A DNA stretch of 64,000 nt from Lingula anatina (GCA_051362555.1 CM120641.1:15500001-15564000), one strand, 5' to 3'; counted from the first letter of the stretch, positions 36,051 to 56,358 are shown. Made by a program: numbers and translations. The notes: generated by a model from the sequence alone, not told the origin.

Positions 36051-36834
36051 AAACACACCACGACTCAATCACGTTGAGCCTCAGCACTAATTGTGAAATA
36101 ACATAATAAAAAAGAAAATAATTGTCAAAATTTTAAATTACGATAAAAAGGAAAAAAAAGGTTTTCGTAACCTCTGATAAGTTATCAGGTAGGATTACTT
36201 ACGTCGGATAGACGTTCCCTTTGGAGGTGATGTCTTCACAGAACACAGCTAGTCCTGCGCTGATCACAATCGCACAAGCTAACATCAGTGTTGTTGAAAA
36301 TATGCTAAACACAGCCGGTGCCAGGTTCAAGATGTCCTTCCTACAACATTTAAATTATTTAGACGATGTTTTTGTAATGGATTCGCAAAGAGTCCATACA
36401 TTGTACATTATATTTTCATCAAAATTGCATGCATGAAAATCTAGATTTTCCATAAATAAATAAATAAAGTAGCTCGATGTACACTAGTGCTAATTATAGC
36501 TCATTAAATTTGCATGCAGTTATTATTGTGGCTATTTTTTTACTCACCCCTGTCTGCTTTTGGCCCGCAACGTATACATGCAATAGATAAACATTATCAA
36601 CGCATGGAAAGAGGTCAGGGCGCACGCAATGGAGACAAAATTACAAGGCATGTGTGCGTACGTTTCGGAGGTGAATCCAAATACTGAACCTGTCCACTCC
36701 CCAGAGGCAAATAGAATGCATCTACCATTCCATATTATCTGTATGGTCCCTACAGAGACTGAAACACACGCGCTCCCTATGAATATGAGGAAATAAATAA
36801 CTGTCAGTAATATAAGTGCCACTCTAACCGCCAT
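35628..36834 (-). CDS. TMEM179: TMEM179-like four-TM protein, copy B (subtype 2), ~198 aa
   Basis: Exons 36834-36548, 36340-36203 (138 bp), 35980-35902 (79 bp) and 35720-35628. Family-like motifs GRCILFASGEW, PCNF, SAGLAVFCE.IT, C..AQ, NFYD...AQ, AGW. An early TAA shortens the tail, and the exon-3 donor is weak (GTCTCT). Confidence 0.75.
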
Positions 36835-38139
36835 TTTGTCTGTCTGTATTTTTTTAAATTTTTTTTTGGGGGGGGGGTGCATGTTTACGGTAATGACTCT
36901 TTTCAATGGGGGAAATTACCAATGCCTTAAATACATAATTTTGGAATCATAAAAAATGTGCCTTTATATTAAGCATTTCTAGTGTTTTTACTGTAGAACT
37001 ATAGGGTGACCTGCTATCGCTCAGTTGAAATGTTCTAAATTTAAGAATTTATGGCTTAAAAGTTACAGTAGGTTCATATGTAAAATTCACAAATTTTACA
37101 TTAGAAATGATCGACTCATTACCGTTTTAGTTGGTCGGTGCAGTCACATTACAGAAATGTTCCACACCTAACACAACTCTCAGTAGACAGTTGGACGATG
37201 TCGGAATTTATCTTATTTATTTTAACTTATTTATTTGTTGGTACTGCATGTAAGGATTTTTAACACATTTAAATCTTACATTTTAATAAGTGCGACGCGT
37301 GGTGACATAAATTTAATATGCCTATGTGCGTAGATAGATTCGATGGTTTATAGGGAAAAAGTGAAATGAAAATAAAAAATAACTGATAGGTTAAATCAGT
37401 AGTTAACTGAGCATACTATATTTCAGATGGGACCTGCGTAATCGACCAGAGAAACGTCACCTTTTTTTATTTTAGGTCATACTTGATTAATAATAATAAT
37501 CTTTATTGAAATATGGCAATTCAAAGGTTGAAGTTATACATTAATATATATATTTTATTTATTCTTTTTAAATCAAATTTATTTAAGTCGAAGAAGCCTG
37601 GTCATTTTTTGGCCCTGTTGCACACTATAGGATGTCGCTCTCGCCTCCCTGGGGAGGATACAAATTAAACTGGCCTTCAATGCAGAACATCTTTTTTCTC
37701 TGAGAAATTACTTGACCAACTTTCTAAGGTCCACAAATAACAAGCACAACCATGCAATATAAGTGGAGTTTAAGTCTTGTTGGAAGCATTTTCTAAAGTC
37801 AAAAGAGCACATACTGTATACATGTATGTAGCTTTGTATTTTTGTTTGCTTAATTGGCGAATTCAATTAATGAACTGGTGTCACAATGACATCAAAGACA
37901 TTATCAAAAGTTATTAAAACACGACTTCATTCCTTAGTTTGATTGATTAGTCATCAAAATAGGAAAAAAGTTATAAAAAAATGATTTGGGAAAATATTCC
38001 ATATTAAATGTCAAGTCTGTATTTTCCAGGAACGCTGATGGTTTCTAGCTTATTGCAGAAAAAGACGAAGCTGTTAAGTTGTTCACAAAGGCTTCGATCC
38101 TGAGAGGTCTCCCGGTATAGTTGCTAAAACCAAATTGGT

Positions 38140-39040
38140 GGTCACAAGGATGCTTTTAGGGGGCAATCTGCCCCTCATTTTTGAGGGTACGGGTTGTCGT
38201 TGTTTTTCTGTTTCGGCATAACCGTAAAAGCAATTGGCCCATCTCCTGGTGATTGGCTTTGGATGCCCCGGGCGTGGCCTTCCGTGCGGATTCCTTGAAG
38301 ATCGATTCGTTGTCTGTGTAGATCCCTACGGATTTTTGGCACCCATGTGGTCAGAATGAGGAAAGACACAAATTCAAATTCGTGCAAATGAGTCACCCTA
38401 AGTTTTGAACATCTTCACTATTGCCATGCCTCCTAAAACTACCAAAGGTGGAAGGAAAAGAGACCAACAAAAGTTCACCGAACAATTCCCGAACGGGAAA
38501 TGCACGATGCCACCTATGATAATGCTACGGCCTACGGGCTTACGATTTTCAAAATATGTCAATGGTTTTAGCTTGACAGAACCATAGAGGCAACGGAGGA
38601 TGTAAATCCGTACGATTCCGTATGATTTCTCACGGCCACCGTCTGCCTGCGCTCAGACGCTACACGAAAAGAGTTTTAAGGACATCGCATGGCAAATGTA
38701 ACCTACGCTCTGGTTAATCTCGGACCAACCCAAACAGAACTACCCAATGAAATAAGTACATATAACGTACAAAATGTATTCACGATCAAGGCAAAAGAAA
38801 AATGCTCCGACATAAAGGGAAAAACCTCTCTACCTAAGGCCTCTGATAAGAGTAGAATGTAGGTTTCATGTTTCATAATTTTCACAATCTGAGAGACAGG
38901 CCTACCCAACTACCAGACTCGGCACCTACGGATCCAGAATAAACCGGTATATCAGACCACACCACCCGTTTTCAAGGTGTGTGTCAGATCGCATTACAGA
39001 GTATCATACCCCATCACAAATGCGCTACGAGGTTAATACG
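38140..39040. repeat. GC-richer interspersed-repeat-like segment, possibly a non-autonomous DNA transposon remnant; duplicated at ~58085-58985
   Basis: Compositional contrast with the flanks and recurrent CCGTA/TACGG motifs; no termini defined. Confidence 0.3.
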
Positions 39041-50062: not shown

Positions 50063-50674
50063 TTTGTCTGTCTGTATTTTTTTTTTTAATTTTTTTTTTT
50101 TTTTTTTTTTGGGGGGGGGGGGTGCATGTTTACGGTAATGACTCATTTCAATGGGGGAAATTACCAATGCCTTAAATACATAATTTTCGAATCATAAAAA
50201 ATCTGCCTTTATATTAAGCATTTCTAGTGTTTTTACTGTAGAACTACAGGGTAACCTGCTATCGCTCAGTTGAAATGTTCTAAATTTAATTAAGAATTTA
50301 TGGCTTAAAAGTTACAGTATAGGTTCATATGTAAAATTCACAAATTTTACATTCGAAATGATCGATTTATTACCGTTTTAGTTGGTCGGTGCAGTCACAT
50401 GCAGAAATGTTCCACACCTAACACAAGTCTCAGTAGACAGTTGGACGATGTCGGAATTTATCTTATTTATTTTAACTTATTTATTTGTTGGTACTGCATG
50501 TAAGGATTTTAAACACATTTAAATCTTACATTTTTAATAAGTGTGACGCGTGGTGACATAAATTTAATATGCCTATGTGCGTAGATAGATTCGATGGTTT
50601 ATAGGGAAAAAGTGAAATGAAAATAAAAAATAACTGATAGGTTAAATCAGTAGTTAACTGAGCATAATTTATTT

Positions 50675-50955
50675 TATGTAGCCAAATGTTAACAAGCACA
50701 ACGAAGCTCTGTTTTTGCTCCAAAGTAAATAAGAAAAGTCCATATGATTGATAATTGTCATTTATTAATGACGAAGCTAATAAAATACGTAGTTACAAAA
50801 CTGGGGAGATAATATAACATCTCCCCAACTATATAAGTGCCATAATATAAAATTAATAAAGTGTAATAAGTGTAACCAAATTAATGAAGAAAATTATAAG
50901 TAATAACAACAGCTTAAGGAGCAAAAAGTTGGCACAAATAAAAATAAAAAGGCCA
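50675..50955 (-). repeat. Split direct repeat B2 (281 bp), 3' end of the Ngaro element
   Basis: No differences seen by eye versus 51481-51761. Confidence 0.93.
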
Positions 50956-51111: not shown

Positions 51112-51480
51112 TGTAAAATTAAAATAAAGAAACGCAAGAAATTATAATACTCTGAAGCTGCTGAAATTGCGTGTACATATCATCGCAGCTAAAAGGCTGA
51201 ATGACTTCTCGCTGATGCAGCTCGCAAGAAGTAGTTTCCTAAAACTCATATAAAATTAACTGTGTGCCTGGATACACAGCAGCTAAGACAATTTGACCCT
51301 GGACATCTGTTATCACCTTGCCTTGGTCAACTACTTAAGATCAAAATGTGCAGACACAAGACCTAAACCCAGACTACTTCCTATAAACAAAGCGTAGATG
51401 GATTACCAACAAAGCTATTACCACCACTAAAAACAAACCATTTCCTACATAAATACAATTAATTATCTTAATTGTAGTTT
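51112..51480 (-). repeat. Split direct repeat A2 (369 bp)
   Basis: Copy of 56924-57292; directly abuts B1. Confidence 0.93.
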
Positions 51481-51761
51481 TATGTAGCCAAATGTTAACA
51501 AGCACAACGAAGCTCTGTTTTTGCTCCAAAGTAAATAAGAAAAGTCCATATGATTGATAATTGTCATTTATTAATGACGAAGCTAATAAAATACGTAGTT
51601 ACAAAACTGGGGAGATAATATAACATCTCCCCAACTATATAAGTGCCATAATATAAAATTAATAAAGTGTAATAAGTGTAACCAAATTAATGAAGAAAAT
51701 TATAAGTAATAACAACAGCTTAAGGAGCAAAAAGTTGGCACAAATAAAAATAAAAAGGCCA
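51481..51761 (-). repeat. Split direct repeat B1 (281 bp)
   Basis: Copy of 50675-50955. Confidence 0.93.
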
Positions 51762-52165: not shown

Positions 52166-53074
52166 TTACAGGTTAAAAGAATTAATGCGGATATATTTTT
52201 GCATGGCGTTGGAATGCCAACGACCAAGTGTTTGAATAAGGGATTCGGAATATCCCAATTGGGCAGCATACGTGGCTGCCCCAATCCGAAAGCTATGGCC
52301 TTTATAACGGCTGATATCCAATCCCGCAAAAGCAAGGGCTTTAGATAATTCTGAGGTAACGTATGAATAAGTGACCGGCGCTCCATCAATAAACTGAAAG
52401 AAAGGACCAAAAGTATGCGTAAACATTTTTTGATAATGTATCAAGGCTTGAACCGGGCAAAGTACAGGGTGAGATGTACCTGTCAGAATGATAGTTAAGG
52501 GTTCATTTCCCTTCTGAGTTTTATGATGCCGGAAGGTTAAATGGGCTTTTGGGGGATCTGTGACTAAATGAAAGGATACGTCTTGAACTTGGAGCACCTG
52601 TGACGATTCATTGCGTGTTTTAACTGTGATTTCTCCCAAGCGAAGAAAGGCATGAAAACTGACTAAAAAAATAGCTTTCAATAGTATTCGATTGATGGCC
52701 GAAGGCACCGTTTTTTCCATAGAAAAGACGATTTTTAATAAAATATCTCTAGTAATGGGTAAGCGGGCGTCCTTGGAAGGGAGCACTTTGTGACACCCCT
52801 GTAACAATTTCCGCACTAGAAACAATTGAGTAGGGTCAAACACATTCATTAATTTGTGTAGGTAGCTAATAGCTGAAATGTGAGATACAATAGAGCTAGC
52901 ACTATATTGTTGTTCGTAAAGAAACCCAATAAAATTACAAATGTCTTGTAGAGTCAATGGCAAAGTAGAGGAGGTAGGGTTATTGTAAAGGAAAAGCCTC
53001 CAGGAACGCTTGTAAGCTGTTCGTGTACCCTCTGACAATGAAGCTTGCAAAAGTAGTTGAGTGGTGGGAGTCAA
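52166..53074 (-). CDS. Ngaro tyrosine recombinase (phage-integrase family); no in-frame AUG at its 5' end
   Basis: N-terminal core-binding-like region (T..AY.R.W..F) and catalytic R-K-H-R-W-Y set: FLRLGE, HHKT, CPV, GHSFRIGAAT, LGRWHS, KYIR. Confidence 0.95.
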   Translation of the reverse strand: MTPTTQLLLQASLSEGTRTAYKRSWRLFLYNNPTSSTLPLTLQDICNFIGFLYEQQYSASSIVSHISAISYLHKLMNVFDPTQLFLVRKLLQGCHKVLPSKDARLPITRDILLKIVFSMEKTVPSAINRILLKAIFLVSFHAFLRLGEITVKTRNESSQVLQVQDVSFHLVTDPPKAHLTFRHHKTQKGNEPLTIILTGTSHPVLCPVQALIHYQKMFTHTFGPFFQFIDGAPVTYSYVTSELSKALAFAGLDISRYKGHSFRIGAATYAAQLGYSESLIQTLGRWHSNAMQKYIRINSFNL

Positions 53075-54822
53075 AGCCGCAACAAGTGATGGGGAATGGG
53101 AGTCGGTTCTAGGTCCAAAAGTGGGAATGTGACCCTCGCCTCCTGAAATTGAGAGCGGGAAAGTTTGTCTGCAACAACGTTACATTTACCAGGAATGTGT
53201 TTGGCTTTAAAGAGAATATTATGCGTTAAACATACCAAAACTAAACGCCGAATCAAACACATAACTAACTTATCTTTACTAGACTGTTTGTTGATAATAT
53301 GTACAACAGCCAGGTTGTCTGAAAGGAAAAGAATCTTCTTATTGATCAGCTGAGATTTCCAAATTTCCAAAGCAATAACAATAGGAAACAGTTCTTTGAC
53401 TGTGATATGCCAAAGTGCAGCTACTTCATCCCATTCATTAAAGAACCAATGACAGCCAAAGACCGCCGCATAACCTATCGACCCCGAGGCATCTGTGAAC
53501 AAGTGTAAGGTATCAGACGATTGCCAAGACGATGGTAGCAAGACTGATTTTCCATTAAAGTGACGTAAAAAATGAAGCCACATGCCTAGGTCCGCTCGTG
53601 CTTCACTATTGAGTCGAATATAATGACGCGGGCGCCTAACACCCAGAGTTAAATCAATTAAGCGGCGTAAGAAAGCTCTGCCCGGTACTACAACTGAGCA
53701 GGCAAAGTTTAAAAGACCGATAAGAGATTGTAATTCTTTCAATTGTACCTTTCTTCTGGAAGAAAGCTGGGAAACTAAAACACAACACTTGTTCAATTTG
53801 TCCTGTGGCAAACGACTTACCATTTGCAGTGAATCTATTTCGATGCCGTAAATAGTTAAACAAGTGGTTGGAGTAAATGTTTTCTTTGCATTAATGGGAA
53901 CGTTAATCCGTTTGCATAAGGCAAGAAAATTTTGTAAATCAACCTGACACTTATTGGACATGGGTGGTCCAATGAAACAGAAATCATCCAGTATATGGGA
54001 CATGGCCGAGGCATGAAATTTTTCCAACATAATCCATTGTAGAGCTGTACTCAGTGATTCAAATATTTGGCACGAACAGCTGGCACCCATGGGCAAACAT
54101 TTCTCATAATAAAATAAACCATTCCAAGAGAAACCCAGCAAATGATAATCCAACGGGCTAATAGGTAAAATGCGGAAAGCATCTAGAATGTCAGACTTAG
54201 CTAAAAGAGCACCTTGGCCGAAATGTTGGACATGGGCGATGACAGTATCAATTGAGTCGTACTGAACTGCAGAAAATTCTCTGGGAATATTAGAATTAAC
54301 CGAGTCCAGGTGGGGATAGGAAAGGTCGTGAATAACACGGAATTTTTGAGGCTCAGATTTAGGAATAACGTGTAATGGTGAACATTTAAAATCTGTAAGA
54401 GGGGGAGTAAAAAATGGGCCAGCAATCCGCCCAGAAGATAAACCCGATTCAATGTAATCCAAAATCGCACCAGGATGAGCACGTGCTGATAAATGATTAT
54501 GAGGAGTGTGAATACTAGGAGTCGCGGTGCAATGTAGGCGGAAACCCTTGGAAATACCATTGATGAGAAAAATAACCTTATGAGGATCATAACCTTGAAG
54601 TTCCAGCTGTAACTGGGTATGGTTTATTGGAGTTGGGAGACAATTTTGTGGGCGGAGACTGCAACTGGGCAGGGTGGGTGCGGCATTTGATTCTAGGATG
54701 CGATCCCTGGCAGTGCTGGCAACAGTGCTTATATTTGCATGGACTAGTGACACATTTTTCCCCCCGATTAAAGGCAAAACAGACGCCTTGACGAAATGGA
54801 CGTAGAAAAGGGGGAGAAACAT
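53071..54822 (-). CDS. pol: Ngaro Pol: reverse transcriptase + RNase H (583 aa)
   Basis: RT motifs KFRVIHDLS, KSDILDAFR, CLPMGASCS, HILDDF, YGIEIDS, LQSLIGLLNF. RNase H motifs FTDASG, ITVKELFPI, SDN, HIPGKCNVVADKLSR. Confidence 0.95.
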   Translation of the reverse strand: MFLPLFYVHFVKASVLPLIGGKNVSLVHANISTVASTARDRILESNAAPTLPSCSLRPQNCLPTPINHTQLQLELQGYDPHKVIFLINGISKGFRLHCTATPSIHTPHNHLSARAHPGAILDYIESGLSSGRIAGPFFTPPLTDFKCSPLHVIPKSEPQKFRVIHDLSYPHLDSVNSNIPREFSAVQYDSIDTVIAHVQHFGQGALLAKSDILDAFRILPISPLDYHLLGFSWNGLFYYEKCLPMGASCSCQIFESLSTALQWIMLEKFHASAMSHILDDFCFIGPPMSNKCQVDLQNFLALCKRINVPINAKKTFTPTTCLTIYGIEIDSLQMVSRLPQDKLNKCCVLVSQLSSRRKVQLKELQSLIGLLNFACSVVVPGRAFLRRLIDLTLGVRRPRHYIRLNSEARADLGMWLHFLRHFNGKSVLLPSSWQSSDTLHLFTDASGSIGYAAVFGCHWFFNEWDEVAALWHITVKELFPIVIALEIWKSQLINKKILFLSDNLAVVHIINKQSSKDKLVMCLIRRLVLVCLTHNILFKAKHIPGKCNVVADKLSRSQFQEARVTFPLLDLEPTPIPHHLLRL

Positions 54823-55610
54823 TCATGGTTGCCACTTTTAACCGTAACTCGGGGATAACTTTTTTCCCACGGGACCAGTGATGTTGCTCGTAATTTGCGA
54901 AAGGCGTCATCATAAATACGCCAAGCATTAGCATTGGGAAGCTTACTTAATTCTCTAATAGTTGAACCGTACTTAAGTAACTTCACAGACTCGTTTGGAA
55001 ATTTTTGTAAGAAAATCGCTGAAAAGACAAAAAAGGCATCCGTCCATTGGTAAAGCGTAATCGGCGATTTCTGCGAGGGCATATGGATCACTTCAAATTT
55101 CATTGGCTGGACCTTGATAGCGAAATCATCATTATGGTTGGAGGGAAGAAGGAGCCGGAAATCTATAAACTCATTGTTCCAAATCTTTTGCTTCAATTTG
55201 GGTGGAATTAAAGCTCCTAAAGGAATGCCATCAGTTAAATCTACAGGTAGAGCTGAAGTGGCATGACTCTCACCTGTGAAAACATTGTCGATCAGACCAC
55301 TGATACTGTGTATCTGCTGTTGAACATGAGCCTCTTGAAGGGAGGGGTCGGAAGAAGAAGCGCTCGACATCTCTGTGTTTGATGCAGTTTGGTGAGCAAT
55401 AATACGCTGTGCCAACAAATCATAGTCGATAACAGGTGTAGTAGAGGTCGATTCCGTCTCTGAAGTAGGTGCGGCGGTGGGTCTCGGCCTCTTGCTTCTA
55501 GTAGCAGTTGATGCCGCAGCCGGTCGTCGTTTGCTGGAAACTGAGCGCGCATTGGAGACACCCGACATCCTCGGCCGCCTACTCCTCCCGGGAGTGGCCT
55601 TGGGAGACAT
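54587..55610 (-). CDS. gag: Ngaro Gag-like ORF with C-terminal Cys/His finger; interrupted by a 1-nt frameshift at ~54860-54865
   Basis: ATG at 55610 (MSPKATPGRSRR..., basic and low-complexity N-terminus), core LKQKIWNNEFIDF...WTDAF..F...LLKY...W..YD..FR..RA....PW. It continues in the +1 frame as VIPELRL...CFAFNRGEKCVTSPCKYKHCCQHCQGSHPRIKC up to the stop at 54587. Confidence 0.82.
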
Positions 55611-55944
55611 AGTAACTAAAGACAAAGGAAACTAATAAGGTCACACTAAGGCAACTGAATGTACATATGACATAATCAAAAAGAAAATTCTTCGGGCCAG
55701 GTAAATAAAGTAAACGGCATCTACCCACAAATAGCCTGAGTAGATATGCCATAAGCCATAGTTTTATTAAAAGTGTAACAAAAAAAAAATATATATATTA
55801 TATTTCCTAGTCCGCCGCCAGAGCCTATCCAAGCAGGCAACAGCCTCAGCTCAGCCTTGCATTTGAAAACAGGGATATCCGGTAAAAATTGACTAGACAA
55901 ACACACAAACAGCTGGGTGACTCCCCAAAAACCAGGAGTATAAC

Positions 55945-56112
55945 CAGTAGCGGATCCAGAGATATTTTCTGACAGTCTTCCAAATTATCTTTGTTGCGCC
56001 ATCCCCCATTTTTGACCGTCTTCCGACAGAAAAATTTAGATACCCGTCAATGTAAACTTAAACATCTGACCGTCTTCCGGAAGACCCAGAAGACGGCCTA
56101 AATCCGCCCCTG
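55945..56112. mobile_element. 168-bp MITE nested in the Ngaro leader
   Basis: Imperfect TIRs CAGTAGCGGATCCA...TAAATCCGCCCCTG, flanked by the direct repeat ATAAC (55940-55944 and 56113-56117); internal GACCGTCTTCC motifs. Confidence 0.65.
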
Positions 56113-56135
56113 ATAACAACTCCCCAAAATAAAAA

Positions 56136-56358
56136 CCTAGTATACCAGATACCACACAGGGCTCTCACTACTAGGCAATCAATTAAACACCTGGGAAATA
56201 CTCCCAGAGCCTAGTATACCAGATACCACACAGGGCTCTCACTACTAGGCAAACAATTAAACACCTGGGAAAAACTCCCAGAACCTAGTATACCAGATAC
56301 CACACAGGGCTCTCACTACTAGGCAAACAATTAAACACCTGGGAAATGCACCCAGAAC
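56136..56358. repeat. 3 x 74-bp tandem repeat in the Ngaro 5' leader
   Basis: Unit CCTAGTATACCAGATACCACACAGGGCTCTCACTACTAGG... starts at 56136, 56210 and 56284. Confidence 0.9.

Follow-up and report, generated by a model that had tools for sequence, protein, structure and literature searches.

The tyrosine recombinase of Ngaro retrotransposons is likely made from a spliced mRNA that supplies it with a Gag leader

We analysed a 64,000-nucleotide (nt) stretch of Lingula anatina DNA (GCA_051362555.1, CM120641.1:15500001-15564000), hereafter the window, whose minus strand carries a Ngaro retrotransposon spanning positions 57292-50672. Its open reading frames (ORFs) follow in the order gag, reverse transcriptase (RT) with RNase H, which make up pol, and tyrosine recombinase (YR). 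The YR frame overlaps the end of RT/RNase H in the -1 frame, keeps the R, HxxR and Y catalytic motifs and runs for 337 codons, and, as a reading made from the sequence alone had reported, it is closed upstream by a TAA and has no early AUG. Its first methionine is codon 111 (position 52849), which places it in the SAM-like domain (Pfam PF02899, YR residues 41-109) or right after it, and hence an AUG start there would cost the recombinase that domain. The sequence-only reading had proposed that the start is supplied by splicing, which would join the N-terminal part of gag in frame to YR and remove the gag core and pol as an intron. The features concerned are the following (a slash marks a splice boundary).

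54587-55631, minus strand: gag, in two frames in the Lingula copy (54768-55631 and 54587-54946), from ORFs and tblastn.
53071-54822, minus strand: pol, RT plus RNase H, 583 codons, without a methyltransferase domain, from the ORF and Pfam.
55274-55610, minus strand: coding part of exon 1, the Gag leader, 112 codons plus 1 nt, with basic clusters, an IDY helix and an LxDNVF helix.
55268-55276, minus strand: predicted phase-1 donor CAG/GTGAGA, which matches the RefSeq isoform-pair boundary and L095 against P0304 (see below).
53143-55273, minus strand: predicted 2131-nt intron with the gag core and RT-RNase H, from sequence.
53143-53162, minus strand: predicted acceptor, a pyrimidine tract plus CAG directly past the RNase H motif DxLSR, from sequence and conservation.
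53180-53182, minus strand: TAA closing the YR frame upstream, from sequence.
52166-53142, minus strand: exon 2, a linker and the whole tyrosine recombinase with FLRLGE, HSFR, GRWH and YIR intact, from sequence and Pfam.

From these features and the comparisons below we consider it likely that Ngaro YR is made from a spliced mRNA in which the first 112 gag codons are joined to an acceptor past RNase H, giving a 437-amino-acid (aa) Gag-leader-YR protein. All coordinates of the sequence-only reading proved exact when they were recomputed and the pieces translated separately. The exon from the ATG at 55610 to 55274 is 337 nt long and ends in phase 1 at the donor CAG/GTGAGA, the first of two GTRAG sites in the gag frame; the acceptor, CTCTCAATTTCAG/GAG, which ends TTTCAG/GAG, opens exon 2 at 53142 in phase 1 of the YR frame and in phase 0 of the pol frame; and with the 2131-nt intron removed, the 977 nt of exon 2 bring the sum to 1314 nt, or 437 codons plus a stop. 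That reading had overlooked a change of frame in gag near 54830-54865, which appeared on tblastn with the intact Gags P0121 and P0122. Because this break falls inside the predicted intron, the YR fusion is unaffected and the intron has a length of 3n+1 nt; in relatives without gag breaks, gag and YR lie in one frame. Splice scoring of the Lingula copy against synonymous-codon shuffles bore out the donor (p=0.022) and failed to bear out the acceptor taken alone (p=0.16), and since this single-copy value is not significant, the weight of the acceptor comes from its conservation in the family.

A metagenome scan gave 80 loci, or 81 sequences with the Lingula copy, and DxLSR together with YR in the -1 frame was present in 68 of the 81; the motif was missing from the contig in 11, and 2 were frame-broken. 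Grouped at 75% identity in YR, these 68 sequences fall into 37 families; a quick tree of the scan loci divided 36 of these between two clades, and family L048, with a short YR match, was placed by motif. In each family the highest-scoring AG was taken from a 90-nt window fixed around DxLSR, with an approximate weight matrix. This best acceptor fell between two pol codons, a position that is phase 1 of the YR frame, in 35 of 37 families, compared with 43 of 246 other pol windows. In a held-out second scan (44 new loci, 21 of them eligible, two duplicate pairs included), the best acceptor was in YR phase in 21/21. In clade A, to which the Lingula copy belongs, the glutamine after LSR is encoded by CAG in all 22 families that have one, whereas elsewhere in pol CAA stands to CAG as 95 to 79; in the 23rd clade-A family, L038, TAG replaces CAG, and there pol is cut directly past DxLSR and the acceptor is kept. 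The LSR arginine is AGA or AGG in 0/23 families, against 92/285 in the comparison. Moreover, synonymous-codon shuffles gave a combined p of ~2e-7 for the acceptor in each of the two clades.

The same stretch of overlap has been read in another way. Poulter and Butler (2015), as quoted in section 12 of PMC13003380, held that YR is probably produced by programmed frameshifting, and a Pol-YR fusion made by -1 ribosomal frameshifting would suit the 68/81 sequences in which YR lies in the -1 frame of pol and overlaps its end, an arrangement that splicing explains equally well. A canonical slippery heptamer, however, is present in 2/37 families and absent from the Lingula overlap, a stable downstream structure occurs in 0/37 at z < -2 (the Lingula values being +1.4 to +1.8), and the YR frame of L053 starts a single base ahead of the acceptor, so that we hold this route to be highly improbable. 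YR might also begin by termination-reinitiation, or at a near-cognate start overlapping the pol stop (TTGA in the Lingula copy), where a TTG does overlap the pol TGA right ahead of the YR core. At the pol stop an ATG is found in 3/37 families and TTG, CTG or GTG in 12/37, yet NTA is found in 22/37 and the middle T is dictated by the stop codon; furthermore, in the Lingula clade the YR frame stays open for ~25-30 codons farther upstream, as far as the acceptor, which such a start does not need. To us this second route is barely credible. The sequence-only reading had named signals of both kinds as evidence for other origins of YR, and in these sequence tests they are not conserved in the 37 families.

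The donor could be examined in the 12 clade-A families with a gag core anchor. The best GT within 43 codons upstream of the gag core was in phase 1 in 10/12 (null 8/28; combined p = 1e-4), and among 7 further loci the top donor was in phase 1 in 7/7, two of them with negative scores. In the comparisons that the sequence-only reading had proposed, donor and acceptor are thus conserved, synonymous positions included, in a phase that nearly always fuses Gag to YR in frame. It had suggested that the GE and FQ dipeptides are by-products of splice signals; GE is not universal, since G-M, G-T, G-K and G-N occur, and what is conserved is the G/GT boundary. The pol frame is +1 relative to gag, and no conserved acceptor joining exon 1 to pol was found in 19 families; for these two reasons Pol is probably made by another route than the exon 1 splice. 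In the second clade (L039, L045, L060, L068 and L073) the gag core frame begins with a phase-1 acceptor scoring 3.2-7.5, a pattern that resembles alternative splicing of a single upstream exon to gag or to YR.

Proteins from oyster, scallop and coral in the databases consist of a Gag leader followed by YR and switch from one to the other at the predicted codon. Among the best 120 YR matches, 19 are at least 400 aa long; of these, 12 match the Gag N-terminus and the I[DN]Y leader motif occurs in 15. Pol similarity in the N-terminal part was seen in 0/19, in searches limited by length, in which a full Pol-YR fusion could not have appeared. The leader motifs are conserved among the fusion proteins, and basic clusters are present in their leaders. 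Of 18 aligned proteins that reach across the join, 17 have, at the Lingula spacing, a junction residue that is one of G, E, V and D, the residues possible for a codon that starts with the G of the donor (G+NN); the remaining one carries 12 additional residues. P0004, an Ostrea edulis model, agrees with the Logan Gag P0121 at 126/132 residues, the two parting at LLDNVFTG, and at two Saccostrea loci the RefSeq isoform pairs are identical through VFAG and then continue as YR in one isoform and as Gag in the other. In the RefSeq isoforms P0124 and P0125 the same acceptor is paired with a second gag donor, of phase 0, which yields a truncated Gag with a pol tail; the tail of the Gag isoform is the pol-frame reading of the acceptor exon over 24/24 codons, and thus both isoforms use the same acceptor. 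For the coral locus L016, the sites predict SLS-G-GYIQAFG, and this was found in P0170, P0291 and P0292 (ENA, Logan and JGI contigs). Moreover, L095 gag and P0304 are identical at 165/166 residues, and GCAG/GTGAGC stands exactly where P0304 turns to YR. For the Ngaro family, then, the splice model is strongly supported by sequence comparison; in the Lingula copy, we infer that the spliceosome would use the predicted sites and that the splice would be the main source of YR.

A number of observations weigh against this account. The top acceptor is out of phase in 2/37 families, both of which have an in-phase CAG at +12; L028 and L033 (2/12 families) have no good phase-1 donor, and the donors of L007, L029 and L032 are weak. 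The families are related, so that the p-values overstate independence, and the splice weights used are approximations. Of the proteins, those from RefSeq are gene models of unseen read support, the contigs may be RNA or DNA, and P0201 (RefSeq), one of six long proteins from the coral search, joins a piece of RT rather than Gag to YR. As for direct reads, 4 of 9 listed same-species RNA runs were mapped, 6-26% of each, and depth was 0-0.4 over YR and 0-3.6 over gag/pol, too thin to test the junction; the joint 55274-53142 is not listed in these four runs, in which coverage is near zero, and the few reads of X7 and X8 fall on gag/pol more than on YR and do not suggest abundant spliced RNA there.

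The very low YR coverage and the missing junction also suit a splice that is real but minor or regulatory, one that would limit full-length RNA or serve non-autonomous copies and leave working YR to be made mainly in another way. In the same direction point the second RefSeq isoform, in which a different gag donor is spliced to the same acceptor and YR is not produced, and the murine leukaemia virus (MLV) splice from a gag donor, which in the sections of PMC1936429 consulted bears only part of integrase. Regulation does not need one particular phase, and yet the Gag-YR phase is kept in the 35/37 and 21/21 noted above; moreover, there is no ATG ahead of the YR core in 26/37 families and no alternative route is conserved. 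We consider such a minor role very unlikely, and take the spliced Gag-leader-YR mRNA to be the likely source of the recombinase.

In itself the element is an ordinary Ngaro retrotransposon of young age, whose gag is broken by a change of frame. Its repeats agree with the A1-ORFs-B1A2B2 layout defined for Ngaro in section 11 of PMC8547959.

56924-57292, minus strand: split direct repeat A1, the element's 5′ end, identical to A2 and beginning with the AAA target trinucleotide.
51478-51761, minus strand: split direct repeat B1; the B1/A2 seam reads end of B, AAA, start of A.
51112-51480, minus strand: split direct repeat A2, matching A1.
50672-50955, minus strand: split direct repeat B2, the element's 3′ end, terminating in AAA.
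37421-37423, no strand: empty paralogous target site with a single AAA, in the second copy of the host repeat.

A1 and A2 are 100% identical over 369 nt, B1 and B2 are 99.3% identical over 293 nt, and the spacer between A2 and B2 is 157 nt. The Ngaro element was inserted into a host repeat, a second copy of which, at 36772-38554, is 92-98% identical and lacks the element; AAA occurs a single time in the empty site, and in the element at either end and where B1 meets A2. The near-identity of the repeat pairs and the single AAA of the empty site therefore indicate a young insertion. After RNase H, Pfam gave no match to a methyltransferase domain, and pol stops 27 codons past DxLSR. In YR its nearest relatives, at 55-59% identity, come from oysters; a search of IMG/VR returned no relatives, and Rfam gave no match.

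The 5′ leader of the element holds several further features. A ~160-nt high-copy repeat at 55950-56113, probably a miniature inverted-repeat transposable element, has an RNA depth of 80-320 from reads that extend into unrelated flanks on either side, and at 56134-56356 a 74-nt unit is repeated three times in tandem at ~96% identity. Upstream ATGs between A1 and gag number 21, and at 55615, 5 nt upstream of the gag ATG, stands a pyrimidine-rich AG; the upstream ATGs and this AG suggest a 5′ untranslated region intron or an internal start site.

In the proposed mechanism, the phase-1 gag donor would be joined to the acceptor right behind the last RNase H motif to give Gag-leader-YR, and unspliced RNA would provide Gag, Pol and the genome. 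The Gag leader would thereby lend YR an AUG and, judging by its motif, a basic patch resembling a nuclear-localisation signal. Two short helices in the leader may let YR join Gag particles; a structure model of the relative P0006 has a disordered leader with two short helices, followed by a confident recombinase fold. Retroviral env, with which the sequence-only reading compared the splice, is translated from a subgenomic spliced mRNA with its own AUG. The likeness is that splicing sets the supply of one protein, and the difference is that env has an AUG of its own whereas that of Ngaro YR would come from the Gag leader.

Closer to the predicted arrangement is the SD' RNA of MLV, in which a gag donor and an acceptor near the pol end fuse the Gag N-terminus to integrase sequence, and which is packaged, reverse transcribed and integrated as the splice-associated retroelement SDARE, according to the consulted sections of PMC1936429 and PMC2925334. 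A donor inside gag and an acceptor at the end of pol are what is predicted in Ngaro. In contrast, the MLV p50/p60 products described in these sections are accessory proteins that contain no more than the final 116 aa of a DDE integrase, whereas in Ngaro the whole recombinase would depend on the splice; MLV is, besides, a retrovirus and the Ngaro element is not. In the Ty1/copia group, too, the amount of a single protein is set by splicing of the full-length RNA, which gives a short Gag RNA (PMC5580714), as is proposed here for the YR of Ngaro, but there the copia splice yields Gag alone, whereas the Ngaro splice would give the integration enzyme its start codon and leader.

With Ngaro elements already described the Lingula copy shares gag, an RT/RNase H that has no methyltransferase, a -1 YR frame that overlaps the end of pol, and split repeats, as given in the consulted parts of PMC8547959 and PMC9210276. 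What differs is the route of expression, for which the literature as quoted in PMC13003380 proposes frameshifting, whereas the sequence evidence favours a spliced Gag-leader-YR. A further difference is that the Lingula copy has no extra SGNH hydrolase frame behind YR. A splice model for YR was not found in the consulted parts of the literature searched (including PMC7192593, PMC6681497, PMC4157794, PMC9341512, PMC9210276, PMC8547959, PMC3783388, PMC3266345, PMC12477816 and PMC9940879), a search that lay outside the originals of Goodwin and Poulter (2004) and of Poulter and Butler (2015), the Repbase reports and supplements, of which those of PMC9210276, with ORF tables and expressed sequence tags, could bear on novelty. 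The type of element and an MLV-like splice from a gag donor are known, and what would be new is an entire integration enzyme that depends on such a splice.

A wider proposal can be framed, the chances of which we regard as evenly balanced: that the YR of all animal Ngaro elements is a spliced Gag-leader fusion, that the spliced RNA is re-inserted as intron-less, SDARE-like copies that supply YR in trans, and that in the second clade one first exon leads to either the gag core or YR. P0226, P0300, P0303, P0250 and P0304 are unbroken fusions on ENA contigs of 0.1-1.2 Mb, and if their genes were called without introns they would be intron-less genomic copies. Among the 124 loci, no intron-less Gag-YR copy was recognised. 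Two candidates were rejected: L022, considered as a pol-less copy, is a truncated YR beside an unrelated gene, and L095 has a deletion from the gag core to mid-YR that lies off the splice sites. At L081-L116, animal Ngaro elements were met on many contigs of GTDB 'bacterial' metagenome-assembled genomes, which likely reflect contamination by host DNA.

The translation of a start-less YR has so far been left at 'probably frameshifting', in the words of the 2015 review as quoted in 2026 (PMC13003380), and the splice model names an exact junction that is testable in existing oyster and coral RNA data. Under this model the annotated YR would gain 110-170 residues and a basic patch, which is relevant to recombinase biochemistry, and many RefSeq genes of bivalves and corals now called 'uncharacterized' or 'xerD homolog' would be explained as Ngaro transcripts. 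Splicing would then also be a point at which the host may control integration.

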